A stretch of DNA of 54,974 nt from NCBI GenBank assembly GCA_903893485.1, contig CAITMK010000009.1, positions 1 to 54,974 of the forward strand. Direction: 5' to 3'. Under the pieces are notes generated by a model. The model saw nothing but the letters and a program-made list of their open reading frames with translations. It searched no databases and was not told where the DNA came from. This DNA is from Candidatus Magasanikiibacteriota bacterium (GTDB lineage Bacteria; Patescibacteriota; Patescibacteriia; Magasanikbacterales; 2-02-FULL-50-9b). Below are positions 21,055 to 42,826 of this stretch, in pieces (the first letter of the stretch is position 1; each line of letters opens with the position of its first letter). The position numbers and the translations under genes are program-made.

Positions 21055-21066
21055 ACGAAAGATCAA

Positions 21067-21840: not shown

Positions 21841-22187
21841 TGTAGATCCGTTAACACAGGATCCTTACTGTGCGCATTTTTAGGGTCAGTGTGGGAACTA
21901 TTTACCTCAAAACCATCGGATAGACCATCGCCGTCCGTATCTGGATTGTGCGGATCGGTACCAAGCGTAATTTCTTGCGCATCAGTTAATCCGTCTGCAT
22001 CAGAATCAGTGAGGAGATATAACGGCTCTCTAGCAGCTCCCGTTGCAGATACCTTGTGCAGTGTATGATAAATAAATACACCCAACGCGATGCATACCAT
22101 CGCCACAATCAGTATAGCAAATATTTTTATCCGTGACGATTGTTCTGGTGGTGTTTGTGCGACTTGAGGAATTTGTTCGTTTTCCAT
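21810..22187 (-). CDS. Small single-pass membrane protein with TSP3-like motifs
   Basis: TM segment [61 protein letters not shown] lies at nt 21879-22007. The gene starts 6 nt after the giant gene's stop. Confidence 0.6.
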
Positions 22188-22193
22188 AACGGA

Positions 22194-25100
22194 TTATTTT
22201 AATAGAAGTGTATTCACACCACCTGGAACATACTGACCTGCATACAATGAAGTCTCCGGCGACGTATCAGTATCAGAAGCACGTAACATGGTGAACAGAT
22301 GGAATTGATCCGCATTTGCCGCATCTGGCTTTAAGTTATCAGTATTGAATGTTGAAACTAATCTCCAATAATGACCATTTGCATCTGGCGTTACATTTCG
22401 ATACCATATCGCAACTTTTGCAGCCGCAATTGGCGCAGGAAGTACAGAATTCCTTGAAAGCCAAACTACGTAAGCTTGACTAGATTGTGAAGCGGCAATA
22501 GTTCCAATAAGAGTACGCGTTTTTGGAATGAAGGCGTTTGCATCATTGATGCCCACAGCAGAATCTATTTGCGCCCACCATGGCCCCTTTGTTAAACATC
22601 CATCACGCCAAGCAATAATTGCCGACGGAATTGCGGTGGCACTAACTTTTATTTCATCAATCATTTCCGCCGAACTCCAACCATTTTTTCCATTACAATA
22701 AATTGCAGGCGGAGTCGCGCCTGAATAAATTTCATTACCAGGAACACTCGCACCGATATGAAGACCCCACGTTTCAAGTGATACAGGATTTCCATTTATT
22801 GTTTGCGTGACAGATTCAATACCTGTTACAACAACACGATAATCACCCGGCAAACCATTTGGCTCAATGTCCTGATGCTGAACAGATGCATTGGTTGATA
22901 CGACAAGCTGTGGAATAGAATAAGCAAAAGCACCGCCCGTTATGTCCGACTCAATCGTTTGTCCATTTGCATATAATCTCAATTGAGGACTTACTGTAAG
23001 ACGGTACGCAGCATCTGGACTAAAACATGCGCGCACCGTTCCAATAAGCGGGCCTGTATCGAACGAATATGTTTGCGTTTGATTAACTTCGCCACTCGGG
23101 GTACTAGTTGGCATTACCAAAATCGGAAAGGCATTTTCAGTTTTCAACTGAGAATCGTATACTACCGCCGAATTTGAATCACCATAACGAATATTACCTG
23201 ACAACCGAACTGGCAACCAAGGCAAGGTTGGATCTGAGAATGCAAAAGTCACTGGAACAACTGATGTAGATGGCAGTTTAACGTATGGACTCAAATTTAA
23301 ACCAGGTGGACTATTGTGTACCGGGTCATAAACGCTCAAATGAATTCCATTTAATCGATTTGTTTGCTTTCCACAACTCAAGTATTCGTCAGGAATGCGC
23401 GCAAGATTATTCAGCAAAACACCGGTTGCAGTTCCGCCGTTAGTTACCGTTGGATCCCCTCCATTATAGGTCTCGTATTTCACATCATAAGTTCCATTTT
23501 TCACTGCAGTAATATATCCGATGTCCCATAGTTCTTTATAAGGAACATGTGAAACGCCTCCTGGGAAATGGTAATCGACATTTCCTGGTCCAAACGCAGC
23601 GACATTTGGACAATCTATCACGCCTGGAAGACAGCCCGTTGAAATTAATCTGCGTACACCAACACGCATACCAACGATAAATGGCTGAGGTTCTTTATCG
23701 ATTGTTGATGACGCCCCAATTGATGCAAATTTAAGCGGAATATTACTTACATTTAAACCTGTCGGCTGTCCAGACAAACCGTATGTAGCAATTTGTCCGT
23801 GGGTAAACAAAGCACCATTTACATTATTACTATCATCTAAGCTGAATATGTGGGCACTAAACCAGTGACTATCAAATTCACTATATACCGGAAGAATATC
23901 ACCCAAACTAGGCGCCGGTCCTTTTTCTACGAAACCCGAACAATCTGACTTACAAGCCTGCGTACCATATTGATACGTTCCCGCAGGATAACTTCCATTT
24001 GGGCCAGCCGCGCCCGCGCCAATATCATTTTTGTCACACACTTCAGTGCCATTTTTTATACCGTCACCGCAATAACCACCAGATACATATGCTTTTTTAC
24101 ATGACGTGGTGCAGTACTGACACGTATTTTTCTGACCATATGCTGGTACACATGGAATACCGTTTTGACCGCCCACTGAATATGGTTTTGTACTATTAGC
24201 TGTTGCAGGATTCGATGGATCGGTTCCGTTATCACATTCTTCACCAGTGCCCGGCGTGAATTTACCATCACCGCAACCTGGTGGCGTCGTTGGGGTACCT
24301 GGAGTCGTTTGAATTTTTTCGCAAACAGGAACACCCGCGGTAGCATTTGTCCATTTACATGGATTTGCATCAGTATGTTTATTACATTTTCGTACACAAC
24401 TATTTGCATAATCAGTTTGATCTCCGTCACAGTCCTCTCCATGATCGGCATTCACGGTACCATCGCCACAATATGGACCATACGCTTTACAATCCCAGTT
24501 GCAAGAATCAACTTGATTGATTGCATATTTTGATCCAATCGTAACCGCACCAACACCGGAATTAATTTCACACATCTCAACGCCTGGTTGAATAATGCCG
24601 TCACCACAAGCGCCAAGCGAACTGACTAAAACTTTTGATTTAACACCGCAATCTGCTGGACAATGATTATATTTTCCATTCAGCGCTTTACCATCGTCAC
24701 AAGTTTCGACACCCACTTGAATTATGCCGTCGCCACACAAAGTAACTGGCGTTTGCGGCCCATATTTACATTGACTCGTACAAACCGCTGTTGAGCTACC
24801 ATATGTGGTTGAGTCATTAATCGTTACTGTTTTACCTGGTGGATCACATTGTTCGCTGCCGCCAATCGAGCCATCGCCACAAACCGCATCTGCAACATAC
24901 GTATTGCCTGTGCAGAAAGAAAGATTTACACGGCCAGACGCCAAAACCGTATCTTTAATATAACCTGCCCAGTTATTCGTCAAAGAAGAATCCTGCTCGA
25001 ATGAAATGCCAAGTTGGTAATCAGCGCCGCTATTAATTGTTCGGTAATGATACGCTTCTGAACCAGGGTTACATTGATACTTTTGTGATTTTGCATTCCA

Positions 25101-28100
25101 GCAAGTTGCGGTATCAAAATCACCGGTGCAACCTGCATATGAATTTAATGGATCAACAACCTGCGCAATGCCAAGTTGCGACATAAAATCCGTCCATTGT
25201 GGCCAGGTACTTGCGGTTAAGCCAGGCACAAACGAACCGGTAGCAACTACTGGATATTTATTTGCAAACGCGTGGGCTTTTTCGAGTGAGCGCGTGAGCG
25301 TCGCCACATCAATCACGCGATTTGTGTCGCGAATAAATTTGGTATATGGAATTTGACAAGTAGTTGGAGTCGCTGGCATTACACATGTTCCGTTACTTGG
25401 GCAATCCGCACTTGAATAACACGAAATTGGACCTGGTGTTGATGCTGTTGAACAGAGTCCAGATGGTCCAGAATTATTACAATCCAGCGGCAGAACATTT
25501 TGTGCATCCGCAACAATTTTTGCATACACAGGATCTGTTTGAAATGAAATTTTCTTTTGAGCAGCATCATACACCATTGCCTGAAAATGAGAGCCCGCAG
25601 CATCAAAGGTAATTGAGCAACGAATCCCCGATTTGAGATTTGCATCACTTCCTGTTCCCGACAATTCATTCGTATTTACAAAAACTCTACTTGCCATCTG
25701 AACCGGTGTCAGAGGGGTTTGAGGAACCGTAGGACAGTCAGCATCCTTATTACACTGCTGAGTGCTTGCTTCTGCCCCCTGATAACAAAGTCCATCATCA
25801 ACCAAATTTGTAGACGTTTGTAAGTTTGCCAAAATCTGATCAAAAATTGCCTGAAGCTCTGGCGTTGCAGGATCAGAAAGACTGATAATAAGCATGTTGG
25901 TGTAACTGCTATTTGTGCTCTGATTTCCGTATGCAACATACAAAGTATTTGCAACACGAACCGCATCCAAACCCGCAACGACTTGCGGCGTTACATCACC
26001 CTTAAATTCTTTTTGATAATACCATTCAAGTGGTGAATAATTTTTTAAGTTCTTTTCAATGCGGAAACCAACCGCCGCGCCCGTGGTCGGATCAGTCAAA
26101 TGAAATGCGTTCAACACGGTGTACACATCAGCGGCATTTGCTGAAGTATCTGCCACAGGATCGATAATAGGAACTAAATGTGGCAATGGTTTTTGCCCCG
26201 TTGGTGTTTCACAATACCAGAATGACATGTTTTGGCCGTTCAAAATATCAGTGAGCGGTGTTTGCGCGTCTGAATACCATGGCGTATCACAAATCGCAGC
26301 CCACACTGGCAAACGGCCAACTACATCATGCCCTTTGGTGCTTGGATCAAAATAAATATCAGAAACTATTTTTGCCAAACCAGTTACAAAAGTCTTACCA
26401 TTTTGGCCGCCCGCAACCATTTCTGTTTTTTGTTGTGTCTTTTTTTCGATTGGATCAATCTTCGCAACTTTCACAAACTGAGATGCCCAATTCCACGTCC
26501 AATCATATTTACCAGAAATCGCAGCCAAAGGCACGTCTCTGTTACCCTGATGGCTAAGACCGTACGCGATCGCCTCTTCAGGCGCATTAAGTTTCTGAAA
26601 ATTTATTTGGTCAGGAAAAATCTGAACCTTATTAAGTGCACATGGATTTGGTCCGGTAGTAAATGTCCAAGATTGCCCCGTAACAGCCACGCCAGAATTA
26701 GCAAGAACCGAATAATCTGCATTCGCCGCATCGGTTGGATTAGTTTTGCTAATCATTACCTTAACTTGCGTATTAGCTGGCAACATATCGCCGACAGAAG
26801 CGGTAAGTAATGCCTCGGAAGTTGATGGATCTGCTTTACTATTTGTATGATTAACAACATCCACAGTGTAAGGCAATTTTTTATAGCAAAATCCACCACG
26901 ATAATCTCCACCAGCGCAAGTCGCTGCATCAGTTGCATAACCAACCATAAAGCTGGTAGAGCTCACCGTTGTAGTATCAACCAATTCATTAACATGTGCA
27001 GTGATGAGCGTATTTCGACAAATATCCGTGGCGTTTGGATCTGGATAAACCGTATCAAAACCAAGCTGCTTGTAGCAACACCCATCCTTTCCCACCTGCG
27101 TACCCGCTGGACACGAAATCGCACTCGCGTTGCAAACCAATTTCCATGGAACCGTATCAGATTTGCCCATGGTCTGTGCGGTAATGTTTGTTGACTGAAA
27201 TCCATTAACTACTGGACCATTTGCATTAATACTAAACGCATGGTCTGGGGTTGATGATGCAGCCGTTTCTTGCGCAACCAAAGGTACGCTTGAAGTCCAA
27301 CTCCATGTATACGCATTTGGATTTAATGGTTGTCCATCTGGATGACACGCATCCGCCTGACCAAATGCACCAACCAAAAATTGCTGCACCTGTCCTTGCG
27401 CTTGCGCAATTGCGTCAACTGGTTTTACATTTACATGATCGATCGCACAAGCTGCGGTGCCCGTAATAAACGTCCACGTAAAATACTGAGCATTCGTTGC
27501 GGGATAATTGAAGTCTGCAAATGGAAGACCCGCGTCAGACAGTACGCCACCTTTCAAAACTAATCGATATTTTCGCTGTGGATCAAAATTCTGTGATGCA
27601 AAAAGTACATGATGATTATCGTTTGCATCGATTGTTGGGACTAGCGCATTTTTGAGATCACTATCTGCAAATGCACAATCATCGGTTGTAAGATTTGTTG
27701 TCGCAGGACATTCGTACAAAAATAATTTATTTTGGAGCGAATCAAGATTTATATTTGTACTAAAGGTGATGTCAACCAACGAATTTAAACAAACACCCGA
27801 TGTTGAACCCGGACAATCAAGCGGATCATACGAGGTAATATGCGGATTGGTAAACGCAACACTAAGAAGCGAAGAGCCTGTAATATTTTGTGCAGTTGCC
27901 AAAATTGAAAGTGGGCTATCCCCGGTTTCTTTGTATGCTGCAATATATTGTGCCCAGCCCGTATCAGACCATTTATTATCAGGGTCAACAGCAGCATAAC
28001 CCGCGTGTGCCAAATCAATACCCCAATTAAATGTAAAGGCGTTTGGATCGAGATACACACATTTATCAGCGCCAAATCCTTGTGCAATCCAGGCGAGCGG

Positions 28101-31100
28101 TGTCCAACTGCCATTTAATAGCTGCTGCACGGTTCCATAATCCGTTGTGGTGTAATTGCCAGGAGACAGTTCGATTGAAGCAAGTTTACACGCAGCATCG
28201 TTGTCGATAAGCGTTGCAGCGGTCTTAAAGGTAAAACAATATCCAACGCCAACAGGACAGCCCTTCATTGGAACCATCATTTTGCCGTTCACACCAACGC
28301 CCTTCGTGTTGGTACTCACTTCAGCAATATATGTTGTATTCAAGAATAGCGGCGCTTTTGGCTCAATGGTGTACTGATACACGTTATCATCCGCATTCAT
28401 GGTTGTCGGTGTAAAATCAGTTGTTGCGGTTGCCACTGCGGTATCACATTCATGATCTTTTTTGGTACCCGTACATTGAAAAAGTGAGAACGTAAAAGGC
28501 GATTCTGTTTTATCTGCGTTCAGCAAAACAACCGGTTGATTAAACGTTACCGATACCAATGACGTACGACAAACAGGCGTCGCCGCAGACCACATAATTG
28601 ATGGGCTTGGACTACGAATTCCATCGATGGAACACTGCTCGTAAATTCGTGGTGGACCCGGATTAATTACTAATGTTCCCGTGCCGGTTTTCAAAGCACC
28701 TTGTTGCATGGTTGATGCAGTGATATCAATTGACGCACCATCTTTCGTTGGTGTTTTCGCATCCAAAAGGGTTGTTGCAGCTGTTGGATTTAATGCTGCT
28801 GCGATCAAAAAATTAGAATCAACCGCTTGCGAAGGTTTCCACCCCCACTGATACACCGATGGATCCAGAATCTGACAATGATCAACTGGATATGGCACTG
28901 GCGACCAATACACTCTATTCTGTTTTGCATCAACGATCGTGCCCAAATTTTGCGTAACAAAACTTGGTGGATCGATTCCTACTTTATCAATCAAACAAGG
29001 TTCGTTAGTTGGGCCCGTGCTAAACGTAAAACAATACACAAAACCCGAACCTGGTTTACAGGTACTGAGTTGATCTGCTGGTGCACGTACTGGTAAGCCA
29101 CTATCAATACCCGCGATCTGATTAGAAATAGAAACGCGATAAGTTGAAGAAATTGCTAAATTTTGTGGCGTTACAAAAATACTTGAATACGCGCTTGTGC
29201 TGTATGCACTTACTTTCAAATTTTTCAGCGAAACCAATGTTGGATCCGTTTGCGTACAAGGATCAGAGATATCCCCGGTACATTTTTCAACAATGATGCT
29301 GCTTTTTGATCCTGAAAAAACATTTACTGTTTTAGGATCAATATTTTCAGTAAATTTAATGGCAATTTGCGCATTGTTACAAGCGCTGACTGTACTAGGC
29401 CAAACCGATGAAGGCGATGGTGATGGAATTGAATTTGTTGCCGTGGCTAAAGTATTACACTCTTCTTTGATTTCTGGTGGCTGCGAAACCGCGCACGAAT
29501 CGCCGGTTGAAAAACACCACAAAAATGCTGCGGAAACTTTTTTGCTTGCGCTTATACATGATGTACCACACGAACCATCCGCGCAACAAATATTGCCGGT
29601 TTTGCAAGCGCCCGCAACCACGCGGCAATCTGAAACTGCAAAATAAACAGAGTTACTACAAGTACTTGGGTTAGTATCACAAATATTTTTTGTTGCTTTT
29701 CCATTTATAACGAGGGATAAACGTACTCCACCACTCACTGCGCTTGCTGGTACCATGATGTTAACCTTGCCATCTGTCCAAATAGAACCTGTTTTTGGCG
29801 CCAATCCAACTACATGATCAGAAAAAATAGCAACACCCGGAGTTGTCCCAAAATGCTCACCAAAAAATGAAATTACAAGTGAACCATTCGCCGGGCCATT
29901 GTCCGCTTTAATTGCACAAACCTGTGGACCTGGTTTATCGGTATTTACTGTGAAATTCTGGATGTTTGAACCGGTTTTATTGCCATATGGATATACTCTA
30001 ATTCCATATTTGGCAACTGGAATATTTGGAACCTTAACAATAATTTGTTTATTCCCCCAAAAACCGGCTGCACATTGTGCAGGAAAATTAGTATCAGCCA
30101 CAACTTGTTGATCCGTTGGATTTCCGGATCCATCAAGTACTACAAAATAAACTTTATTTGGCACCGTACCAAAACCAGTACCCGTAAGCGTCACGTAAGT
30201 GCCAACACCCCCAGCTGCTGGTGCGACAGAATTCAAACTTAATACATTATCAGGATTCGCAGGCCCTTTCCCCGTGGTAGCAGTTGACGATGCAGTCACC
30301 AAAAATTCTAATGGATTTGTCGTAATACCTTTAATAACTGCCTGCACATTAATAAATCCAGGATCCATGTCTGGCAAAGTGGCGGTAATAGTATTTGGCG
30401 TAATTTGTGCCCACGTGGCATCATTTGCAGAATATCCACCAAAAAATAATTTACGATCTACACTGGGCGATGAAATATCATCAGTGCCTAAAAGAGAAAC
30501 CTTGGTACCAGAAAAACCAGAATCTGGAATCAATCCACAGATACCAGGGCGTACTACGTCGGTAATTTTAAATTGCTGGAGATATAAACCGGTTTGGTTG
30601 TCGGTTGTGTCAATCGATGTTGCGGAATTTTTAATCTGAATCGCACCGCTTTTAGCACCATCTGGAACGCGCACCACCACCTGATCATTTGACCAGCCAG
30701 CATCACAAGCCAAAGGCGCTTCAACATCATCAGTATCTGTTTTTGGATCACCTAAAAAGGTCACGGATCCAAAATTCGTTCCAAAACCATCGCCCGAAAT
30801 AGTTATGTAAGAACCTGGCGCACCATCTTGAGGCTGAACATCTTTGATAATCGGCGAACTTGAGCAAACATGTTTTACTGGATCACAAAAACCGTTTCCA
30901 CCCGCACATTGCGATGAAGCTGTACAAGCTGAATTCGCACACAATCCACATTCACCATTAGCAGCACTACAATCAATTGCAATTTCAGTTGGATCCGTTA
31001 CGCCGTTTACCGATTGAACTTTATTGAAACAATGTGCAGCATAAGAAGTTGTATGAATTTGCGCTTTGCCCAAATTACCTGCCACATCCATCGCGTCAAC

Positions 31101-32264
31101 TTCAATGACATGCGCCGTACCTGGTGCATCGCCCTTCGTGTTGAATTTCTGTGAAATAATATAAAGTTGCTGACCCGTATTCCCCGCTGGATAAACTGGC
31201 TGAACTGTTTCCAGCAATTTTCCATCAACCAAAATTCTACCATATGCAATACCGTCGTTATCAGAAAGCAAAGCTTTTACTGGGACAAAAGATTCTGATG
31301 GAATTTTACCATTGTCTGGCGGAGTCGTATTTGAAATGTTTGGTGCGGTGGTATCGATATCAGTACCAGCCGTAAAGGTAAATTTACAATTAACGCCAGT
31401 GCATACCAAAATTTTACCCGTTACCGCAGCGTGAATTGAAGTTGATAAACCGCCAACTAATGAAACATTATATTCATCTGGGTCAAAACAATGCAACGAA
31501 TCATTCGGCGCTGGACACGACTTTGAAGGAATAAATGTAATCGTATCAGCATCAACCGTAACTGCTCCGTCAACTTTCGTACCAGCTTTATTTGTGACTA
31601 TGAAATTACTGCCGTAAGAAACCGTTGATTCGTCAACAGCCTGATTAAAAACAACATTTACGCGTATATTTGCAAATTTTTGAAGTCCTCTTGGCGATCC
31701 AAAATTAACCGTAAGAGCGCCAAAACCACTACCTCCACCACCACCCAACCCAGTGCCACCACCAATACCAACATCAGTAGTACCTCCACCACCATTCGCG
31801 AGCGGTGACCCTGTGGCGGTTAAAAAAGATCGAATAATAAATTCTGAAATACCAAACGAAGAAAGTACAATAACCAAACCAATAACACCGTTGGTCAAAA
31901 TTCGTTTTGCTTTTTCAGCCGTTTCTTCGGAACCACCTGCCGTCATGTAGGTAAAACCGCCGTAAATAATTACGCCGATTACAATAACGCCCATGAGGCT
32001 AAGGAAAATACGAATGATGTTCGCAATGATCACCGTAAATGGCGTGCTGCCAAGCCCAGATGTTTGCTGAATCGTTTGCAAACCAGTATCGCCCGGCTGA
32101 ATTTGATTGGTGCCGGAAACAGCAGGTGCAGCCTGACCGCCAAGAACTGGAGCCGTATTTTGTGCATAAACTACCGATGGCGCGTGTGTTGGGCCAAAAA
32201 ATAATCCGCCAAGCAGTACTAAACCAAAGCTGATTTTTACAAACAAATTACGGAGTTTTGCCAT
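22194..32264 (-). CDS. Giant (3356 aa) surface protein: signal peptide + VirB2/TrbC-pilin-like two-helix module + Gly linker + Ig-like/IPT-TIG/Cys-rich repeats + C-terminal beta-rich region
   Basis: Uninterrupted 10 kb ORF.
- aa 1-150 match the N-terminus of the upstream 648-aa protein.
- GGGGTTDVGIGGGTGLGGGGGSG forms a linker.
- Four IPT/TIG-like units (..GSYITISGDGFG.., ..GTYVTLTGTGFG.., ..SLVISFFGEHFG..) lie at about nt 29650-30865.
- Four ~270-aa supermodules follow.
- Six CGDG..C(D/E) repeats are present. Confidence 0.85.
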   Translation of the reverse strand: MAKLRNLFVKISFGLVLLGGLFFGPTHAPSVVYAQNTAPVLGGQAAPAVSGTNQIQPGDTGLQTIQQTSGLGSTPFTVIIANIIRIFLSLMGVIVIGVIIYGGFTYMTAGGSEETAEKAKRILTNGVIGLVIVLSSFGISEFIIRSFLTATGSPLANGGGGTTDVGIGGGTGLGGGGGSGFGALTVNFGSPRGLQKFANIRVNVVFNQAVDESTVSYGSNFIVTNKAGTKVDGAVTVDADTITFIPSKSCPAPNDSLHCFDPDEYNVSLVGGLSTSIHAAVTGKILVCTGVNCKFTFTAGTDIDTTAPNISNTTPPDNGKIPSESFVPVKALLSDNDGIAYGRILVDGKLLETVQPVYPAGNTGQQLYIISQKFNTKGDAPGTAHVIEVDAMDVAGNLGKAQIHTTSYAAHCFNKVQSVNGVTDPTEIAIDCSAANGECGLCANSACTASSQCAGGNGFCDPVKHVCSSSPIIKDVQPQDGAPGSYITISGDGFGTNFGSVTFLGDPKTDTDDVEAPLACDAGWSNDQVVVRVPDGAKSGAIQIKNSATSIDTTDNQTGLYLQQFKITDVVRPGICGLIPDSGFSGTKVSLLGTDDISSPSVDRKLFFGGYSANDATWAQITPNTITATLPDMDPGFINVQAVIKGITTNPLEFLVTASSTATTGKGPANPDNVLSLNSVAPAAGGVGTYVTLTGTGFGTVPNKVYFVVLDGSGNPTDQQVVADTNFPAQCAAGFWGNKQIIVKVPNIPVAKYGIRVYPYGNKTGSNIQNFTVNTDKPGPQVCAIKADNGPANGSLVISFFGEHFGTTPGVAIFSDHVVGLAPKTGSIWTDGKVNIMVPASAVSGGVRLSLVINGKATKNICDTNPSTCSNSVYFAVSDCRVVAGACKTGNICCADGSCGTSCISASKKVSAAFLWCFSTGDSCAVSQPPEIKEECNTLATATNSIPSPSPSSVWPSTVSACNNAQIAIKFTENIDPKTVNVFSGSKSSIIVEKCTGDISDPCTQTDPTLVSLKNLKVSAYSTSAYSSIFVTPQNLAISSTYRVSISNQIAGIDSGLPVRAPADQLSTCKPGSGFVYCFTFSTGPTNEPCLIDKVGIDPPSFVTQNLGTIVDAKQNRVYWSPVPYPVDHCQILDPSVYQWGWKPSQAVDSNFLIAAALNPTAATTLLDAKTPTKDGASIDITASTMQQGALKTGTGTLVINPGPPRIYEQCSIDGIRSPSPSIMWSAATPVCRTSLVSVTFNQPVVLLNADKTESPFTFSLFQCTGTKKDHECDTAVATATTDFTPTTMNADDNVYQYTIEPKAPLFLNTTYIAEVSTNTKGVGVNGKMMVPMKGCPVGVGYCFTFKTAATLIDNDAACKLASIELSPGNYTTTDYGTVQQLLNGSWTPLAWIAQGFGADKCVYLDPNAFTFNWGIDLAHAGYAAVDPDNKWSDTGWAQYIAAYKETGDSPLSILATAQNITGSSLLSVAFTNPHITSYDPLDCPGSTSGVCLNSLVDITFSTNINLDSLQNKLFLYECPATTNLTTDDCAFADSDLKNALVPTIDANDNHHVLFASQNFDPQRKYRLVLKGGVLSDAGLPFADFNYPATNAQYFTWTFITGTAACAIDHVNVKPVDAIAQAQGQVQQFLVGAFGQADACHPDGQPLNPNAYTWSWTSSVPLVAQETAASSTPDHAFSINANGPVVNGFQSTNITAQTMGKSDTVPWKLVCNASAISCPAGTQVGKDGCCYKQLGFDTVYPDPNATDICRNTLITAHVNELVDTTTVSSTSFMVGYATDAATCAGGDYRGGFCYKKLPYTVDVVNHTNSKADPSTSEALLTASVGDMLPANTQVKVMISKTNPTDAANADYSVLANSGVAVTGQSWTFTTGPNPCALNKVQIFPDQINFQKLNAPEEAIAYGLSHQGNRDVPLAAISGKYDWTWNWASQFVKVAKIDPIEKKTQQKTEMVAGGQNGKTFVTGLAKIVSDIYFDPSTKGHDVVGRLPVWAAICDTPWYSDAQTPLTDILNGQNMSFWYCETPTGQKPLPHLVPIIDPVADTSANAADVYTVLNAFHLTDPTTGAAVGFRIEKNLKNYSPLEWYYQKEFKGDVTPQVVAGLDAVRVANTLYVAYGNQSTNSSYTNMLIISLSDPATPELQAIFDQILANLQTSTNLVDDGLCYQGAEASTQQCNKDADCPTVPQTPLTPVQMASRVFVNTNELSGTGSDANLKSGIRCSITFDAAGSHFQAMVYDAAQKKISFQTDPVYAKIVADAQNVLPLDCNNSGPSGLCSTASTPGPISCYSSADCPSNGTCVMPATPTTCQIPYTKFIRDTNRVIDVATLTRSLEKAHAFANKYPVVATGSFVPGLTASTWPQWTDFMSQLGIAQVVDPLNSYAGCTGDFDTATCWNAKSQKYQCNPGSEAYHYRTINSGADYQLGISFEQDSSLTNNWAGYIKDTVLASGRVNLSFCTGNTYVADAVCGDGSIGGSEQCDPPGKTVTINDSTTYGSSTAVCTSQCKYGPQTPVTLCGDGIIQVGVETCDDGKALNGKYNHCPADCGVKSKVLVSSLGACGDGIIQPGVEMCEINSGVGAVTIGSKYAINQVDSCNWDCKAYGPYCGDGTVNADHGEDCDGDQTDYANSCVRKCNKHTDANPCKWTNATAGVPVCEKIQTTPGTPTTPPGCGDGKFTPGTGEECDNGTDPSNPATANSTKPYSVGGQNGIPCVPAYGQKNTCQYCTTSCKKAYVSGGYCGDGIKNGTEVCDKNDIGAGAAGPNGSYPAGTYQYGTQACKSDCSGFVEKGPAPSLGDILPVYSEFDSHWFSAHIFSLDDSNNVNGALFTHGQIATYGLSGQPTGLNVSNIPLKFASIGASSTIDKEPQPFIVGMRVGVRRLISTGCLPGVIDCPNVAAFGPGNVDYHFPGGVSHVPYKELWDIGYITAVKNGTYDVKYETYNGGDPTVTNGGTATGVLLNNLARIPDEYLSCGKQTNRLNGIHLSVYDPVHNSPPGLNLSPYVKLPSTSVVPVTFAFSDPTLPWLPVRLSGNIRYGDSNSAVVYDSQLKTENAFPILVMPTSTPSGEVNQTQTYSFDTGPLIGTVRACFSPDAAYRLTVSPQLRLYANGQTIESDITGGAFAYSIPQLVVSTNASVQHQDIEPNGLPGDYRVVVTGIESVTQTINGNPVSLETWGLHIGASVPGNEIYSGATPPAIYCNGKNGWSSAEMIDEIKVSATAIPSAIIAWRDGCLTKGPWWAQIDSAVGINDANAFIPKTRTLIGTIAASQSSQAYVVWLSRNSVLPAPIAAAKVAIWYRNVTPDANGHYWRLVSTFNTDNLKPDAANADQFHLFTMLRASDTDTSPETSLYAGQYVPGGVNTLLLK
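24030..24890 (-). repeat. Six cysteine-rich CGDGxxxxxxExCD repeats inside the giant ORF
   Basis: The repeats are CGDGSIGGSEQCDPPG, CGDGIIQVGVETCDDG, CGDGIIQPGVEMCE, CGDGTVNADHGEDCDGD, CGDGKFTPGTGEECDNG and CGDGIKNGTEVCDKN. They resemble the Myxococcus cysteine-rich repeat class. Confidence 0.7.
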
Positions 32265-34194
32265 ATTCTAATAAATTGCAATTTTCATTCGATGAAACAC
32301 CATTACAGCAGGTATAAGTCCCCGTATCGGTTGTTGGATCTGTGTACGTACATTGTAACCCAATTTGCGAATTTTGACCCGAAGCCAAAAAACAATTCTG
32401 ATACACATCCTGCACACTTGAAGGCAACGCTGGCGCATACGATTGACTCTTCGCAAAAGAAACATGTTTAATATTCAATTTAGTAACTGAATTTGTTACA
32501 CCCGCAACTGTTGTTGTCTGATCAACAGACTCTTTCCAAAAACCGGCCTGCGCTCGAGGATTTTGCGCGACCAATCCAACGCCGCTAAACGAACTTGCCT
32601 TCATTAAGGAATCAAATGTTGCACTAACTGCACTATCGGCGGTAAATGGATTCGTTGCATCTTTTCCATTTGCGCCAAAAAGCGGTTCAACAGATGTAAT
32701 TTTTGGATCGGTAATTTTGGTAGCATCCGTCGTGTTGAATGAGAAATAAAAATCATCAACCGGGCTCCCCGATGGCTTGCCGCCGGTAGTACTCCATGGT
32801 GTTTTTGCATTTTCACCACCACCATCAAGCGCGTTGCCCGCAGTATCGGTGATTCCCTGCAACGATAATTTTGGATTTACCTGTGCATTCACCCCTGGCT
32901 GTGCAAGCACACCAGACAATGCGCGCACTTCTAATTTTTCGCTTGCTGGCAAGCAAAAAATCTTTTGACCACACGCATTGGTGCCACATTCCGCAGCGGT
33001 TGTAAAATCAATAATATTAAATCCCCCGCCAGCACGCCACACACCAGACACAAACGAACCATCTGGGTTTGCAACGCGAATATTTTTAAACTGCTTTGAA
33101 TGTCCATCGTATTCCCCAACCGCTGAAGCAAGATTAACCGGCTCCGAAAAAGTTACTTGCACAGTAATATTGCGCGCATAGGTACCACCTGCCGTTGGAA
33201 TTACTGAAATAATACGAGGCGGCGTTAAATCGAGTTCCGTGCTAACCGTAAATTTCCATGAATATCCACCGCTAAATCCAGAAAAAATACTTTGGCCTGC
33301 AGGAGTTACGCGTTTAATATCTGGCGAAAGTTCCACGGTATATGGCGTTTGTGCTGTTGCACTTCCTAAAAATGGAATCGGATCGTAAACCACAACCGTT
33401 GAGTCCGCACCTTCGGAGCCAATAGTGACCCACACATCTGTTGGCTTGAGCGCGGTATTGCGACCCTCAGCAGTTGCATAGATCAAAAAGGTTGAACCAT
33501 TCACTGGGCCACTTACCAAACGCTTTATTTCTTTGCCATTTGCATCGGTTGTTGTTTTGTATACCGCATCTGGTGATGTTGCATCAATCACACTTGTTGG
33601 ATCGATTGGAAATTTGTATACAACTTGAATCATTTTGTTGCGAGGAACGCCAACTGCATCACGAGCTGGATCGTGCGATTCGATAACGCGGCCAAGCGCT
33701 GAGCCTCCGTCGTAGCCAGAAAGTAAATCAACGCCACCCGAACCATTCGATCCAACAAGTTCAGTTCCACCAGTTAATCCACCGGCGCCAAACAATCGGC
33801 TCATGATATACGAGGTAATCGCGTAGGATGAAGCAATAATCACCAAACCAATCACGGTATTTTTTAAAACGTCTTTTGCCTGCGTCACCTGCTTTTCATC
33901 GCCAGCAGCGGTCATCCACAAATAGCCGCCATAAATAACAAAGCTGATTACCACCGCGCCAAGTAATCCAAAAAGAATATTTATGATGCGGCCAATAATA
34001 ACGCCCAATGATGAGCTGCCTAAACCAGCGGTTGAATTAACTGAATTTAAATTTTGAAGCGCGTCAGTTGCAGGAGCAGTCGTTTGCGCATACACCGACG
34101 AAGCGCCGTGAAAAAACAAAAAACCGACCGCGCACATGAGCGCTGCCGTAAGTAGAAGATTTTTTTTGTAAGTGGAAAAAAGAACGAAGCGCAT
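32248..34194 (-). CDS. 648-aa surface protein: signal peptide + pilin-like two-helix module + Gly linker + Ig-like (SbsA/Big_5-type) domains
   Basis: The N-terminus ..SSVYAQTTAP..GLGSSSLGVIIGRIINILFGLLGAVVISFVIYGGYLWMTAAGDEKQVTQAKDVLKNTVIGLVIIASSYAITSYIMSRLF is paralogous to the giant protein's N-terminus. ..LDLTPPRIISVIPTAGGTYARNITVQVTFSEPV.. is Ig-like. The stop overlaps the giant gene's start by 17 nt. Confidence 0.8.
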   Translation of the reverse strand: MRFVLFSTYKKNLLLTAALMCAVGFLFFHGASSVYAQTTAPATDALQNLNSVNSTAGLGSSSLGVIIGRIINILFGLLGAVVISFVIYGGYLWMTAAGDEKQVTQAKDVLKNTVIGLVIIASSYAITSYIMSRLFGAGGLTGGTELVGSNGSGGVDLLSGYDGGSALGRVIESHDPARDAVGVPRNKMIQVVYKFPIDPTSVIDATSPDAVYKTTTDANGKEIKRLVSGPVNGSTFLIYATAEGRNTALKPTDVWVTIGSEGADSTVVVYDPIPFLGSATAQTPYTVELSPDIKRVTPAGQSIFSGFSGGYSWKFTVSTELDLTPPRIISVIPTAGGTYARNITVQVTFSEPVNLASAVGEYDGHSKQFKNIRVANPDGSFVSGVWRAGGGFNIIDFTTAAECGTNACGQKIFCLPASEKLEVRALSGVLAQPGVNAQVNPKLSLQGITDTAGNALDGGGENAKTPWSTTGGKPSGSPVDDFYFSFNTTDATKITDPKITSVEPLFGANGKDATNPFTADSAVSATFDSLMKASSFSGVGLVAQNPRAQAGFWKESVDQTTTVAGVTNSVTKLNIKHVSFAKSQSYAPALPSSVQDVYQNCFLASGQNSQIGLQCTYTDPTTDTGTYTCCNGVSSNENCNLLEYGKTP

Positions 34195-34202
34195 AAAAAA
34201 GA

Positions 34203-34661
34203 TCAGGCAGAAGCTTTGAGTGTTGCTTCGACTATCGTGCGTGCACGAGCGCCATCCGCGCGGCCGGCAATACGTTTCATTACATCGCCGATTAATTTAC
34301 CCGCATGTGGATTTGGACCCGCGGCCGCAATAGCTTCAGCAACAATTTTTGTAATTTCTTCATCGGACAATTCTTGTGGCAAATATGATTGCAAAAGTGC
34401 AATTTCTTTTTCGGCGGTTGCAACTAAATCCGCGCGGCCACCTTTTAAAAAATCTTGGATTGCATCTTGCGTTTGTTTGACTTGGCGTTTTAAAACAGAA
34501 ACCGCAATCACGTCTTCATCGGCATCTTTACCGCGAAGTTCAATGAGTGCGTTTTTTATTGCGGCACGAATAAGCCGAAGCGTAGAAAGTTCCAGCTCGC
34601 GCTTTGCTTTCATGGCTTCGGCTACATCGTGTTCAATTTTGAGACTGATGGCATTTCCCAT
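34203..34661 (-). CDS. yqeY: GatB/YqeY-domain protein
   Basis: MGNAISLKIEHDVAEAMKAKRELELSTLRLIRAAIKNA.. ..LLQSYLPQELSDEEI... ATG 34661 is preferred because the track start 34688 is TTG. Confidence 0.8.
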   Translation of the reverse strand: MGNAISLKIEHDVAEAMKAKRELELSTLRLIRAAIKNALIELRGKDADEDVIAVSVLKRQVKQTQDAIQDFLKGGRADLVATAEKEIALLQSYLPQELSDEEITKIVAEAIAAAGPNPHAGKLIGDVMKRIAGRADGARARTIVEATLKASA

Positions 34662-34696
34662 AGGACAAACTCTATGGAAAAGCTGCAAACCAAAGA

Positions 34697-35006: not shown

Positions 35007-36422
35007 TTAAACTGCAGCAGAATCAAGGCCCAATTTGCGCTTCAAGATCTGTGGAGCCTTGTTAAAATCAACGGTTTCCTGGACACCTGAATCCATGTCA
35101 CGAATGATCACGGTTCCTTCTTGGACTTCCTTTTGGCCAATAACCATGGCGAACGGAATTTTCTTGCCATTTGCAGATTCCAACTGAGATTTTAATGAAT
35201 TTTTGCAAAAATCCTGATCAGCCAAAATGCCTTCAGCACGAAGACGGGTGAAAAGAAGCATTGCCTTGCGACGTGACAAATCACCAAGTTGCGCTACATA
35301 CACCTGAGGAGCTGGTGCGCCTGGAACATCGATCTGGCGTTCACGGAGCTGGATAAGGGCACGTTCAAGGCCTGGAGCGGTGCCACAAGCTGGTACTGGT
35401 TTGCCGCCCATTTCTTCGACAAGCAAATCGTAACGGCCACCACCACAAAGTGCGGTCTGTGAGCCCTGTTCGCCATCCGTGGTAACGATTTCAAAAACCG
35501 TTTTGGTGTAATAGTCCAAACCGCGTACCAAGGTGTGATCCAAGAAATAAGGAACATTGAGTTCATCGAGATATTCCAAAACTTTCATGAAATGATCGCG
35601 GGATTCGTTTGAAAGATAATCAACGATTTGCGGCGCAGCGGTTTTGATTGGCTGACATTGAGGTTCTTTGCAATCCAAAACGCGCATTGGATTTTTCATG
35701 AGACGAACTTTACAGGTCTCACAAATTTCGCCACGGTGGCTACGATAAAATTGCACCAATTCCATTTTGTAACGGGTACGATCTTCGGGCATGCCGATTG
35801 AATTGATCTGTACGTTGACTGGAATTTTTAATTCAGTGTAAAACAAATACGCCATCTGAATAATCTGTGCGTCGATAACCGGCGATGCATCACCGATAAT
35901 TTCGAAACCGACCTGCGTAAACTGACGCTGACGGCCAGACTGTGGACGCTCGTGACGAAACATTGGACCCCAATACCAAAGTTTTACTGGTTGAGGCTGG
36001 TTCCACATGCCGTGCTGCAAATAAGCACGCACAACCGAAGCCGTAGCTTCAGGGCGAAGCGCAACTTTTTCCTGGTCACGATCTTCAAAAACGTACATTT
36101 CTTTTTCAACAATATCGGACTGCTTACCAACAGAGCGCATAAACAATGCAGCTTCTTCCAAAACTGGTGTTTCGATGCGATCAAAACCGTAATCAATTGC
36201 AAGCTGCTGAGACTTGTCGTACATCGCTTTCCAATACCACTGATCACGAGGCAAAACATCTTTCATGCCACGAACCAACTGAAATTGTTTTTTAGCAGGA
36301 ATTTTGACTTCCTCTTTTTTTGGAGCTGCTTTTGAAGCAGGAGCTGCTGATTTTTTTGGCGCTACTTTTTTAGCAGGCGCTGCAGCTTTTTTTAACATAG
36401 GTTTCTTTTTTGATTGTGGCAT
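35007..36422 (-). CDS. hisS: Histidine--tRNA ligase with ~46-aa Lys/Ala/Pro-rich N-terminal extension
   Basis: The core begins ..FQLVRGMKDVLP... It continues ..IETPVLE..LF.RSVG..SDIVEKEMY.F.D......LRPE.TA and ends in an anticodon-binding domain. The N-terminus reads MPQSKKKPMLKKAAAPAKKVAPKKSAAPASKAAPKKEEVKIPAKK. Confidence 0.92.
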   Translation of the reverse strand: MPQSKKKPMLKKAAAPAKKVAPKKSAAPASKAAPKKEEVKIPAKKQFQLVRGMKDVLPRDQWYWKAMYDKSQQLAIDYGFDRIETPVLEEAALFMRSVGKQSDIVEKEMYVFEDRDQEKVALRPEATASVVRAYLQHGMWNQPQPVKLWYWGPMFRHERPQSGRQRQFTQVGFEIIGDASPVIDAQIIQMAYLFYTELKIPVNVQINSIGMPEDRTRYKMELVQFYRSHRGEICETCKVRLMKNPMRVLDCKEPQCQPIKTAAPQIVDYLSNESRDHFMKVLEYLDELNVPYFLDHTLVRGLDYYTKTVFEIVTTDGEQGSQTALCGGGRYDLLVEEMGGKPVPACGTAPGLERALIQLRERQIDVPGAPAPQVYVAQLGDLSRRKAMLLFTRLRAEGILADQDFCKNSLKSQLESANGKKIPFAMVIGQKEVQEGTVIIRDMDSGVQETVDFNKAPQILKRKLGLDSAAV

Positions 36423-36433
36423 ACAAAGTTGAA

Positions 36434-37051
36434 TTAAGGCTCTGTGTGATTGTATACGTCGCCGGCTAAATAACTGATACGATCCAAGGGAAATCCGCGG
36501 AAAAGTGCTCGGCCAACAAGGTCAACTCGCTTAACCGGGCCAAACCGGCGCGAGTCGAAACTGGCACCACGATTGTCTCCCATTACATAGTATTCATCTG
36601 AGCTGAGTGTGACATCTATATCGCCGTCTGTCAAGACGGTTGGGCCCAAATACGCCGATTCATCGAGGTATTCCCCGTCCGGATGTTGCGAGTTGAAAAT
36701 CCGTATGCGACCTCCCCGAATGATGAGATGTTCCCCTGGAAGCCCAATGATACGCTTGAGAAAATATTCTTTGTCCACGTCGCCATGGTAATGCATAACG
36801 ATTACCTGCCCGCGGTGCGGCTGACCCAAATGAAAACTAAGCTCATCAATGATCAAATATTCTTTGTCCAGATAGGTTGGCACCATTGACGTGCCGCTGA
36901 CCACAAATGGTTTAAAAATAAAATAACGAATTGCCACAACCGCAAAAGCGCCAATAATCAAGACTTTAAAAAGTTCCTTAAAAAAAAGTGCGAGCGGATG
37001 TTTTTGATCCCCTTCTTCAGCAAGCAAATTGTCTGATACAAAGTCATCCAT
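36434..37051 (-). CDS. lepB: Signal peptidase I
   Basis: N-terminal TM segment, ..VSGTSMVPTY.. (catalytic Ser box), ..KRIIGLPGE.. and ..GDNRGASFDSR.. Confidence 0.88.
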   Translation of the reverse strand: MDDFVSDNLLAEEGDQKHPLALFFKELFKVLIIGAFAVVAIRYFIFKPFVVSGTSMVPTYLDKEYLIIDELSFHLGQPHRGQVIVMHYHGDVDKEYFLKRIIGLPGEHLIIRGGRIRIFNSQHPDGEYLDESAYLGPTVLTDGDIDVTLSSDEYYVMGDNRGASFDSRRFGPVKRVDLVGRALFRGFPLDRISYLAGDVYNHTEP

Positions 37052-37141: not shown

Positions 37142-38269
37142 TTAGAACGTGATTGACTTGCCCGCAAGAGGAAGGCCTACGGCAAAAGGAATCGATTGCG
37201 ATACACCGTCAGACCAATTGATACCGGTCAAACCAATTGAAATCGTAGAACCCATTTTAGCTCCAACCGTGTCGGCAGTAACGGTGAAAGATTGATTCGT
37301 CGCAAAATCAATGTAAACCGGTTTTACAAATGTAACCGTCCCCGACTTCATGCCAGCAACAAATGGAATGGTTCCCAAAAGATTTGCCGAAGAAGCTACC
37401 AAACCTTTATACACCGACAATACAGAATTTTTTCCAATTGGGACAAAAGTTGAATTTACACTAAATGTCAGCCCAGAAACAATGGAGTTAGGAGCGCCAC
37501 CGGGGTTCATGTCGCTACTAAGTATAAAACGTGCGATTGGCTGTCCATATCCCTGCACTCCAAGTCCACTTGGCGAATCGGCCGCGGCAAAAGCGTAGAC
37601 CATTGATTCATAGCCGGTTAACGTAACGGTTGGACTTGTTGCGCTAAAATCACCCTTCACAATAGCCGCGGTACTGCTTGGCGTTGCTGCCGTAACAATT
37701 GCAGGCAAATTATCTGTACTGTACCCATTTACCAAACGAGGCCGTATTTGTACCCCCGAAAATGAGTTGCCCGCCGATGCCGACAAGGTGCCTTTGAGCG
37801 TAAGCGTACGTGAAGTGCCTTTTGGAATTACAAAACCTAAATTGTAAAAATGTGCGTATCCATTTTCCGCAATGCCAACTTTTTTTACTGCATCGCCCGA
37901 GCTAAGTGCGTATATCACTCCTTTACTTTTGACTTTATCCCCTTCGTATAACATGAACTGTCGCACAATTCCTAAATGACTAATTTTATCCAATTTCTTA
38001 ATAAAAAAATCAACAGTAATGTCATTAACCTTCGTGTCCACTTTTGGATCGCCGGTAAGTGTAAAACTTAAAAATGTCTGATTAGTTTCGCCAAGTTTAA
38101 GACTGGTAATTGCAGGCGTTGTAGTGGAAACGGTAACCGTAATTACGGGTGGCGCAGGAGTTGTTGCTGCTCCTGCATAAAAAACTAATGTTGCAACGGC
38201 TAAAATTGAGATGCCCGAAGCTGCAAACAAAAGCGCTATATTACGAAATGAATGACTCGGATGTTTCAT
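37142..38269 (-). CDS. Secreted beta-rich surface protein (hypothetical)
   Basis: ATG 38269 gives MKHPSHSFRNIALLFAASGISILAVATLVFYAGA (signal/anchor). The longer track ORF (to 38347) would run into the tRNA-Ile terminator. The body is T/S/V/G-rich. No family recognised. Confidence 0.55.
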   Translation of the reverse strand: MKHPSHSFRNIALLFAASGISILAVATLVFYAGAATTPAPPVITVTVSTTTPAITSLKLGETNQTFLSFTLTGDPKVDTKVNDITVDFFIKKLDKISHLGIVRQFMLYEGDKVKSKGVIYALSSGDAVKKVGIAENGYAHFYNLGFVIPKGTSRTLTLKGTLSASAGNSFSGVQIRPRLVNGYSTDNLPAIVTAATPSSTAAIVKGDFSATSPTVTLTGYESMVYAFAAADSPSGLGVQGYGQPIARFILSSDMNPGGAPNSIVSGLTFSVNSTFVPIGKNSVLSVYKGLVASSANLLGTIPFVAGMKSGTVTFVKPVYIDFATNQSFTVTADTVGAKMGSTISIGLTGINWSDGVSQSIPFAVGLPLAGKSITF

Positions 38270-38330
38270 AGGAAGAACGTTTTGAAAGTTTAAAAAACTT
38301 GCCGATAGTATATCACACAAAAATTGTATA

Positions 38331-38366
38331 AATAAAAAATCCAACACCTTTCGGTATTGGATTTTT
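38331..38366 (-). terminator. tRNA-Ile trailer terminator
   Basis: The minus strand after CCA reads AAAAATCCAATACC-GAAA-GGTGTTGGATTTTTT. The same stem sequence follows tRNA-Val at 53362. Confidence 0.7.
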
Positions 38367-38443
38367 TGGTGGGCGATCGAAGATTCGAACTTCGGACCTC
38401 GTCATTATCAGTGACGCGCTCTAACCAACTGAGCTAATCGCCC
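38367..38443 (-). tRNA. tRNA-Ile (anticodon GAU), CCA encoded
   Basis: GGGCGAT TA GCTC AGTTGGTTA GAGC G CGTCA CTGATAA TGACG AGGTC CGAAG TTCGAAT CTTCG ATCGCCC A CCA folds as a perfect cloverleaf. Confidence 0.95.
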
Positions 38444-38700: not shown

Positions 38701-39204
38701 ATGGAGCTCATTCGAGTATTGAGAAGACGGCGGGATGCTGATGATTTGCTGATCAAGCAGTGCGCGGGCAAAGAAGACGCATCGCGAGCGATCATTTCGT
38801 TTGCGAATACTGCCTGGGGTGGCGACTACCGAGTGCTTGTCACCGCGTATTACAGCCTGGGCGAAAACAAGCACCAACAAGGCCGCGACGTCTGCGAACT
38901 CGTGCAGCACGCCTGCTTTCCGGGGTCCAACGACTTCAGCGATGCCAGTGCGCGCGGCGCTGTTGAAGTGTGTCTAAACCCCATCAACGGTTTGGTGGGA
39001 CACACGCTCATCCAGGTCAACGGACCGAAGATGATGCCGCCAAAAATCAGGATCGCCGGCGATCACTTCGCACATCTGGTGATGGCAAAGGGGCCAGTAC
39101 CAGACCAAAATGGCGCCGGTCCAGTGAAGAATCAGGCTGTTTTCTTTGTTCCCCCGACCGCGCGATCCGCCACGACTGAACCAACCACGCAAAAACCCGC
39201 GTAA
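38701..39204 (+). CDS. Orphan 167-aa protein on a locally high-GC island
   Basis: A strong SD (AAGGAG at 38689-38694) lies 6 nt before the ATG. The ORF has its own promoter and terminator and spans the whole island. Four other ORFs in other frames overlap it, which indicates elevated G+C. No family recognised. Confidence 0.55.
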   Translation: MELIRVLRRRRDADDLLIKQCAGKEDASRAIISFANTAWGGDYRVLVTAYYSLGENKHQQGRDVCELVQHACFPGSNDFSDASARGAVEVCLNPINGLVGHTLIQVNGPKMMPPKIRIAGDHFAHLVMAKGPVPDQNGAGPVKNQAVFFVPPTARSATTEPTTQKPA

Positions 39205-39215
39205 GCGGACCTCAC

Positions 39216-39266
39216 CAAGACTTTATGAGCACGCGCTGTGGCGCCGCTTGTAAAGTCTTGTTTTTT
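39216..39266 (+). terminator. Terminator of the orphan ORF
   Basis: CAAGACTTTA-25 nt-TAAAGTCTTG followed by TTTTTT. The T-run overlaps the stop codon of the convergent 607-aa gene. Confidence 0.5.
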
Positions 39267-41088: not shown

Positions 41089-41113
41089 ATAAAAGATACC
41101 AGCAGTATACCAC

Positions 41114-41145
41114 AAAATAAAAATCCGCTCCTTGCGGAGACGGAT
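41114..41145 (-). terminator. Terminator of the 16S rRNA transcription unit
   Basis: The minus strand reads ATCCGTCTCC-GCAA-GGAGCGGAT followed by TTTTTATTTT, downstream of the 3' processing-stem half. Confidence 0.6.
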
Positions 41146-41238: not shown

Positions 41239-42738
<1,500 letters not shown>

Positions 42739-42826
42739 ATGAACAACTTTATGTGTTCCGATTTATAGATTTTTATATTCGAGGACAACTCGCACTGAAA
42801 CTCGCTATAAACAAGTTTCAATTTGA

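Follow-up and report, generated by a model that had tools for sequence, protein, structure and literature searches.

Two adjacent genes of a Magasanikbacteria contig carry a Patescibacteria VirB2-like pilin module ahead of large ectodomains in a conserved cassette

The 54,974-base chromosomal contig CAITMK010000009.1 of a Candidatus Magasanikiibacteriota bacterium (assembly GCA_903893485.1), hereafter the window, encodes two adjacent proteins that begin with the same pilin-type module and continue into very different ectodomains: M, of 648 amino acids (aa), and the giant G, of 3,356 aa. Sequence comparison places both modules in the VirB2-like pilin family of Patescibacteria, and the M-G pair is an ancient, deeply conserved cassette, not a local oddity. 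We tentatively propose, at somewhat below an even chance, that M and G are modular VirB2-like pilins of ABY1-type Patescibacteria that co-assemble with stand-alone pilins on a chromosomal type IV secretion system (T4SS). The parts of the two genes, all on the minus strand, are as follows.

G, 22194..32264 (-): 3,356 aa; pilin module, Gly-rich linker and a Cys-rich ectodomain of ~3,170 aa
G signal peptide, 32163..32264 (-): aa 1-34; predicted signal peptidase I site between VYA and Q
G pilin hairpin, 31812..32039 (-): aa 76-151; helix 76-107, loop TAGGS, helix 113-151
G PF18895 match, 31839-32048 (-): aa 73-142
G Gly-rich linker, 31719..31811 (-): aa 152-182
M, 32248..34194 (-): 648 aa; pilin module, Gly-rich linker and a ~480-aa ectodomain of immunoglobulin-like (Ig-like) domains
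M signal peptide, 34087..34194 (-): aa 1-36; predicted site between VYA and Q
M pilin hairpin, 33787..34008 (-): aa 63-136; helices 63-95 and 100-136
M PF18895 match, 33805-34017 (-): aa 60-130
M Gly-rich linker, 33691..33786 (-): aa 137-168; predicted local distance difference test score (pLDDT) <50 for aa 137-156
M ectodomain, 32251..33690 (-): aa 169-648; chain of Ig-like beta-sandwiches (Big_5) with a conserved Cys-rich C-terminus

A first-pass annotation of this DNA, made from the letters alone, had noticed a shared N-terminal module on two very different ectodomains, at 31815-32264 (G aa 1-150) and 33790-34194 (M aa 1-135). This observation was borne out by BLASTP, which aligned the 160-aa N-termini at 39% identity over 148 columns (E=7e-30). 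The estimate by eye that roughly half of about 80 positions were identical was close to the 37 of 81 counted over the same positions, and the ungapped core (G 65-152 with M 52-139) has 40 identical residues out of 88. When either module was compared by phmmer with all 677 six-frame open reading frames (ORFs) of the window, only the other module matched (E about 4e-20); there was no third copy among these ORFs, the next match having E>0.4. The phmmer and BLASTP scores therefore place the similarity between M and G far beyond chance.

The layout first proposed for the module is present in both proteins: a signal peptide, a helix, a polar loop with the Y-G-G..MTA.G motif (consensus Y-G-G-x-x-x-M-T-A-G/A-G) and a second helix, followed in each by a Gly-rich linker (G aa 152-182, M aa 137-168). 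A low-confidence tail of ~25-40 residues lies between the signal peptide and the helices of each. Exactly three hydrophobic segments occur in M and in G, corresponding to the signal peptide, helix 1 and helix 2, and neither protein has a further one beyond helix 2. AlphaFold2 modeled a helical hairpin in G (76-107/113-151) and in M (63-95/100-136) at a pLDDT of 87-94, with a predicted out-transmembrane-in-transmembrane-out topology. The VYA-Q signal peptidase site, which the first-pass annotation had suggested checking, is found in M and G; the A-Q pair is conserved in the alignments, A36 of M is invariant among 50 homologues, and the hydrophobic segment of the G signal peptide spans aa 6-26. 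Signal peptidase I would probably cleave both proteins after VYA. A type IV (class III) pilin identity was also considered and rejected, since neither N_methyl nor any type IV pilin family matched and the cleavage site is of the signal peptidase I type.

Assignment to the pilin family rests on several comparisons. The gathering threshold of PF18895 (T4SS_pilin), 26.6 bits, was exceeded by M (41.7 bits) and by G, whether searched as a 200-aa fragment (40.2) or as the whole protein (35.8). A database search with the G module returned 14 proteins, mostly of 124-159 aa and nearly all with PF18895, one of which carries the name 'pilin [Patescibacteria group bacterium]'. Both M and G align with stand-alone Patescibacteria pilins of 124-136 aa from the signal peptide and its A-Q site through the end of helix 2, where the stand-alone proteins stop and M and G continue. 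Furthermore, when 1.84 billion proteins were searched with a profile of the module, 85,281 cluster representatives matched at E<=1e-3. The module is not a generic anchor, and the caveat that it might be conserved nowhere outside this pair falls away. The concern that homology to VirB2/TrbC might be lacking altogether was likewise judged not to apply.

The more specific claim that the module has the topology of conjugative VirB2/TrbC pilins stood in part: membership in the PF18895 pilin family holds, but homology to the classical proteins is indirect, and neither M nor G matched PF04956 at E<=1. Comparison by hhalign of the module profile with three VirB2/TrbC sequences (A. fabrum VirB2 and two TrbC/VirB2 proteins) gave a probability of 66% (E=5.8e-5) over 39 columns comprising the post-cleavage segment and helix 1, where the VirB2/TrbC motif GGTDP..I.NI..FILG..G...AV....G..WM lies opposite D....IA.II...LG.LG...V....YGGF.WMTAG in the module. 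PF04956 was also matched by 20 of 75 family relatives (best E=7e-7), and one M-like protein (P0109) has both PF18895 and PF04956 matches. A. tumefaciens VirB2 was the sole PDB sequence match of the module profile; at E=3.9 it is suggestive without reaching significance. Both modules also matched NCBIfam NF045849 (Mbov_0395 pilin-like conjugal transfer protein, from a Mycoplasma integrative and conjugative element), with 29.6 and 29.3 bits (E about 4-5e-7), short of its cut-off of 40 bits and thus indicating a significant relative, not membership. Hydrophobic segments can draw spurious profile matches in this family: DctQ, DUF898 and Cyt_bd_oxida_II each appeared in 7-10 of the 75 relatives. 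A Foldseek search of the module model against the PDB found nothing at E<=1e-3, its top matches being generic helical hairpins, with no conjugative pilin in the top 50; since a two-helix hairpin holds too little fold information, this neither supports nor refutes similarity to VirB2. Homology of the M and G modules to classical VirB2/TrbC is therefore plausible but no more than moderately supported.

At 648 and 3,356 aa, M and G lie outside the small stand-alone size (~50-160 aa) of PF18895 pilins. The first-pass annotation had regarded the module as normally stand-alone and here fused, and the fusion is real, but such fusions are nothing unusual for Patescibacteria. Among the top database matches, pilin-headed proteins of 700-5,006 aa turn up often, many giants of 2,000-5,006 aa carry the pilin head, and in other family members the same head precedes a ConA-like Laminin_G_3 module or five PKD domains. 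The family also includes many single polypeptides of 2-17 tandem pilin modules (P0117-P0241), such as P0241 (1,775 aa, 17 matched stretches) and P0119 (820 aa, 8). Such 'poly-pilins' represent another unusual architecture within the PF18895-type pilin family.

The model of M (pLDDT 83, predicted template modeling score 0.74) is a chain of Ig-like beta-sandwiches, and Foldseek matched its ectodomain to Ig-like domains from titin, cadherins, LdtMt2 and SbsC, an S-layer protein (E=3.6e-7 for SbsC). The first ~900 residues of G contain Big_5, Big_7 and three TIG domains, with more Big_5 around aa 1470-1600; Cys-rich CGDG..C repeats resembling DUF4215 occupy aa ~2500-2750, and the protein has 106 cysteines in all. 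A relaxed Pfam scan of four G segments recovered only Big_5, Big_7, TIG and DUF4215, with none at ~aa 1700-2500 or in the last ~600 aa. A phmmer comparison of G with the PDB returned only a TIG-like stretch of cyclodextrin glucanotransferase, and no catalytic domain was recognized. We infer that both ectodomains are displayed at the cell surface, probably in an adhesive role.

The pair recurs widely. Over 100 full-length homologues of M (~560-900 aa) were found, nearly all with PF18895 and Big_5; some, from Uhrbacteria, Magasanikbacteria and Parcubacteria, go under the names 'Ig-like domain-containing protein' or 'pilin'. A scan of one genome per GTDB species yielded at least 577 relatives, and the best 80 loci, which were analyzed, come from Uhr-, Magasanik-, Falkow- and Komeilibacteria and from unnamed Patescibacteria; we place these groups in GTDB class ABY1. 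In 79 loci M is followed directly by a same-strand G that is also headed by the module. In these 79 loci M, measured from stop to stop, spans 484-838 aa (median 651), and the 42 complete cases of G span 1,404-3,590 aa (median 3,174). The survey that had been suggested for further module-headed ORFs and short stand-alone copies thus found both, in the form of these 79 M-G loci and the stand-alone pilins of 124-159 aa. In two loci (L039 and L044) a stand-alone pilin gene of 125-136 aa sits between M and G. Many of the related metagenome-assembled genome records (L007-L013 and others) bear the title 'uncultured Gammaproteobacteria bacterium', and isolated records that of 'Kapaibacterium' or 'Udaeobacter'; since they hold a Patescibacteria-type cassette, these labels are probably placeholders or errors.

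The hairpin is the most conserved part of M. Across a sample of 50 M homologues, it has a mean pairwise identity of 51%, with 21% of columns at least 90% conserved, compared with 37% and 10% for the ectodomain, 30% and 3% for the Gly-rich linker and 24% and 6% for the signal peptide. The hairpins of M and G also co-vary: within a genome the two share 51% identity (58% over the core), while cross-genome identity is 41% for M-G, 40.5% for M-M and 44% for G-G comparisons, and in 16 of 79 genomes no other module is as close as the own-genome partner. Where the aligned four-fold amino acids are identical, third-codon identity is 0.32, near the 0.29 expected from codon usage, which argues that this co-variation does not stem from recent gene conversion. 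Recent duplication or gene conversion was accordingly rejected as the source of the M-G similarity, given saturated synonymous sites and a pair present in 79 loci. The pattern fits co-evolution between the two hairpins, or of both with a common partner. Because the family-wide motifs are kept, the hairpin is the most conserved part and M and G co-vary within genomes, we infer that the hairpin is still a working assembly interface.

We suggest the following mechanism. Sec would insert M and G, signal peptidase I would cut both after VYA, and the hairpin would hold them in the cytoplasmic membrane, its two ends facing out and the MTAGG-E..AK loop facing in. Such an arrangement would be the outside-membrane-inside-membrane-outside topology of conjugative pilins, and would give a membrane pool of hairpins. 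From the C-terminal end of helix 2, the chain would pass through the flexible Gly-rich linker into a disulfide-rich series of Ig-like, TIG and Cys-repeat domains; with the end of helix 2 outside, followed by linker and ectodomain, the ectodomain would be displayed on the cell surface. M and G might then assemble with one another and with stand-alone pilins on the T4SS as sparse, low-copy tip or base subunits, which would equip a conjugative-type pilus with large arms for binding, much as type IV pili gain theirs from modular minor pilins. In conjugative pili of solved structure both the N and the C termini face the exterior of the tube (bioRxiv 10.64898/2025.12.18.695078), which makes a C-terminal fusion topologically permissible. 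Incorporation of M or G into a pilus is the speculative part of this scheme.

The machinery that such co-assembly would call upon is widespread in the phylum. Nearly all Patescibacteria have T4SSs and VirB2-like pilins, which are essential in the one species that is genetically tractable (PMC12102498, PMC10633639, PMC12857230); VirB4 was found in 2,417 of 3,035 Patescibacteria genomes, including ABY1, where T4SS loci are common, and a pilin lies near virB4 in only 1,135 of 1,948 assemblies (PMC12102498). One stand-alone homologue of the module (P0014) belongs to a four-pilin array adjoining genes for PrgI (VirB3-like), a TraC-like protein and a P-loop_TraG/DUF87 (VirB4-type) protein. The closest stand-alone pilins lie in arrays of six tandem PF18895 genes each (L087 and L088, 7866-12552; L089, 9979-12576), and VirB4 is absent from the surrounding 10 kb. 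A seventh pilin gene lies directly 3' of a solute-binding-protein gene (PF01547) in L087 and in L088, a pairing seen in both loci, and the corresponding position in L089 holds a 139-aa gene with no Pfam match on record.

Several observations count against assembly of M and G on a T4SS pilus. The 55-kb window contains no T4SS gene, nor do the 10 kb upstream in each of three annotated relatives (L001-L003), and the closest stand-alone pilins (P0003 and P0008) belong to arrays without VirB4 within 10 kb. We found in the literature neither a visualized pilus of the PF18895 family nor a paper on large proteins fused to a pilin head. A 3,170-aa appendage is too large for every subunit of a tightly packed pilus, so that only sparse or terminal incorporation is conceivable. 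Part of the similarity of M and G within genomes could be due to old conversion events or to an amino-acid composition specific to the lineage. Finally, a structural role in the envelope would account for the housekeeping location of the cassette and its near-universal presence in the sampled relatives just as well as an adhesin would.

Alternatively, the pilin hairpin may have been co-opted purely as an N-terminal membrane anchor, with no pilus or T4SS involved, so that M, G and the thrombospondin type-3 (TSP3) repeat proteins encoded beside them would give these ultra-small, wall-poor cells a permanent envelope structure, for instance surface fibrils or an S-layer-like coat. We consider this quite possible, though we would sooner doubt it than accept it. 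In addition to the lack of nearby T4SS genes already described, it draws on the housekeeping context, with signal peptidase I, HisRS and YqeY upstream and YbeY, DAGK, FtsA and FtsZ downstream, conserved across 62-79 loci. An M ectodomain that is moderately conserved and not hypervariable, and the Ca-binding TSP3 membrane proteins co-encoded 3' of G, are also consistent with a permanent coat. The Foldseek match to SbsC points the same way, but this is generic Ig-like similarity, and LdtMt2, titin and cadherins score alike. A generic anchor would, however, be expected to be less conserved than a functional domain, whereas the hairpin is the most conserved part of M and keeps the polar pilin loop motif; the co-variation of the M and G hairpins within genomes and the stand-alone pilin genes between M and G in two loci likewise argue against a purely static role. 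If the hairpin did serve only as an anchor, it would represent a common means of fixing giant surface proteins to the membrane in a poorly annotated phylum.

A bolder extension of the modular-pilin proposal, which we regard as rather unlikely, is that the VirB2-like hairpin is a general polymerizing base onto which binding ectodomains are grafted, with M and G forming the tip or base complex of a T4SS-dependent host-contact filament in the cassette-bearing lineages (assigned to ABY1) and perhaps more widely in the phylum. If true, this would amount to a 'modular conjugative pilus', a kind of filament for which no T4SS precedent has been described, and would identify the long-sought attachment proteins of these uncultured epibionts.

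Another version dispenses with an extended pilus: the hairpins would dock permanently on a VirB6/VirB3-like platform as components of the T4SS base, with the arms around the pore holding the host surface. The pilin family is linked to T4SS clusters (the P0014 locus; PMC12102498), the hairpin is conserved and co-varies between M and G, and no PrgB-like adhesins were detected in published searches of Patescibacteria (PMC12102498), all of which would be consistent with such an arrangement. It shares the missing gene linkage to a T4SS in the window, and we judge it improbable. Finally, there is next to no chance that the module is an artifact of signal-peptide or transmembrane compositional bias, of recent local duplication or of a mis-assembled or chimeric giant ORF: hydrophobic segments do draw spurious profile matches, as seen for DctQ, DUF898 and Cyt_bd_oxida_II, but the BLASTP E-value of 7e-30 is composition-adjusted, polar motifs are conserved, PF18895 scores exceed the threshold, both genes are intact, orthologous pairs occur in 79 loci of different species and synonymous sites are saturated.

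In the window, M and G lie within a tightly packed minus-strand run of signal peptidase I, HisRS, YqeY, M, G and three TSP3-repeat membrane-protein genes. The neighbors of the pair are as follows.

Signal peptidase I, 36434-37051 (-): conserved neighbor, three genes upstream of M
HisRS, 35007-36422 (-): conserved neighbor upstream of M
YqeY, 34203-34688 (-): conserved neighbor upstream of M
Three TSP3 genes 3' of G, 21810-22187, 21067-21840 and 19837-21066 (-): single-pass membrane proteins

Only 8 nucleotides separate the YqeY stop from the M start codon, and the M stop and G start overlap by 17. Among 62 related loci with at least 4 kb of upstream sequence, the cassette is preceded by HisRS in 55, signal peptidase I in 53 and YqeY in 41, and three contigs with precomputed annotation (L001-L003) have the same gene order. 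The pilin-type signal peptides of M and G would both be cut by an enzyme of the signal peptidase I class; the linkage of its gene to M may be functional or may just reflect conserved housekeeping synteny. The three TSP3 genes overlap or abut one another, their products having a cytoplasmic N-terminus, Thr/Pro-rich spacers and bacterial thrombospondin type-3 (Ca-binding) repeats, and they are probably in one operon with M and G. An ORF with the TSP3 motif lies 3' of G in 12 of 28 related loci, and also in L003, so the TSP3 proteins may be partners of M and G.

Elsewhere, the contig carries a bacterial 16S rRNA gene (41239-42739, minus strand), two tRNAs and small housekeeping genes. Between the 16S gene and tRNA-Ile(GAT) (38367-38443, minus strand) lie a 616-aa ORF with a TTG start (39265-41115, minus strand), without Pfam or NCBIfam match, and a 167-aa ORF (38701-39204, plus strand), without Pfam match; there is no 23S gene anywhere in the 55-kb contig. 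A 16S gene without 23S on the contig, with two ORFs before tRNA-Ile, suggests that the rRNA operon of the source genome is unlinked or interrupted. Between tRNA-Ile and signal peptidase I, a 401-aa ORF with a GTG start (37142-38347, minus strand) has no Pfam or NCBIfam match and is present in only 2 of the 62 related loci.

The closest relatives of the M and G modules are the VirB2-like pilins and pilin arrays described in Patescibacteria, including Southlakia epibionticum ML1 and Nanosynbacter lyticus TM7x (PMC12102498, PMC10633639, PMC12857230). Both groups come from the same phylum and share a signal peptide with the A-Q site, a two-helix hairpin and the YGG..WMTAGG.E..AK..N.VIGL motifs, and the stand-alone relatives form tandem arrays, some adjoining VirB3/VirB4 genes. 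The described pilins, however, are stand-alone proteins of ~120-160 aa, whereas M and G carry ectodomains of 480 and 3,170 aa and lie in a conserved housekeeping cassette instead of a pilin array or T4SS cluster. A survey of Patescibacteria counted any PF18895 match as 'VirB2', and we came upon nothing in its text about fusions or protein length (PMC12102498), and a search for VirB2-like proteins of Gram-positive bacteria was filtered for 50-150 aa (bioRxiv 10.64898/2025.12.18.695078), a range that excludes the M and G architecture by design. As such proteins are already in public databases under automatic names, the novelty lies in an undescribed, deeply conserved architecture of a known family.

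With classical VirB2/TrbC/TraA and with PrgF, M and G share the predicted topology, in which a signal peptide precedes an out-membrane-in-membrane-out hairpin, and, putatively, a long signal peptide cut before Gln, and with VirB2/TrbC also motif-level similarity in helix 1; they differ from VirB2/TrbC in having no direct PF04956 match. The T-pilin and RP4 TrbC are cyclized head-to-tail, which a C-terminal fusion would preclude. VirB2-like PrgF proteins have been described in Gram-positive T4SSs (bioRxiv 10.64898/2025.12.18.695078). VirB5 and PrgB (pCF10) resemble M and G in their proposed role, contact with the target-cell surface for a T4SS, but they have no sequence relationship to M and G and are separate from the pilin, not fused to it. 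The S-layer protein SbsC (PDB 4uic; Big_5/SbsA-type) likewise has chains of Ig-like domains, but it uses a wall-binding domain where M and G have an N-terminal membrane hairpin, and the similarity is generic to Ig-like chains.

By analogy only, the closest functional counterparts are modular type IV pilins such as Streptococcus sanguinis PilB, with a vWA module, and PilC, with a lectin module (PMC8179133, PMC9934059). In these a polymerization module is grafted to a binding module, and a minor subunit makes a simple filament adhesive; members of the M/G family correspondingly combine the pilin head with ConA-like lectin (Laminin_G_3), PKD or Ig modules. The fold and machinery are unrelated, however, as type IV pilins have a class III signal peptide and a prepilin peptidase, while M and G have a signal peptidase I-type site and a two-helix hairpin. 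The M-G pair and its relatives with lectin-like and PKD arms are concrete candidates for the host-contact apparatus of epibionts, and suggest that conjugative-type pilins, like type IV pilins, may be modular.

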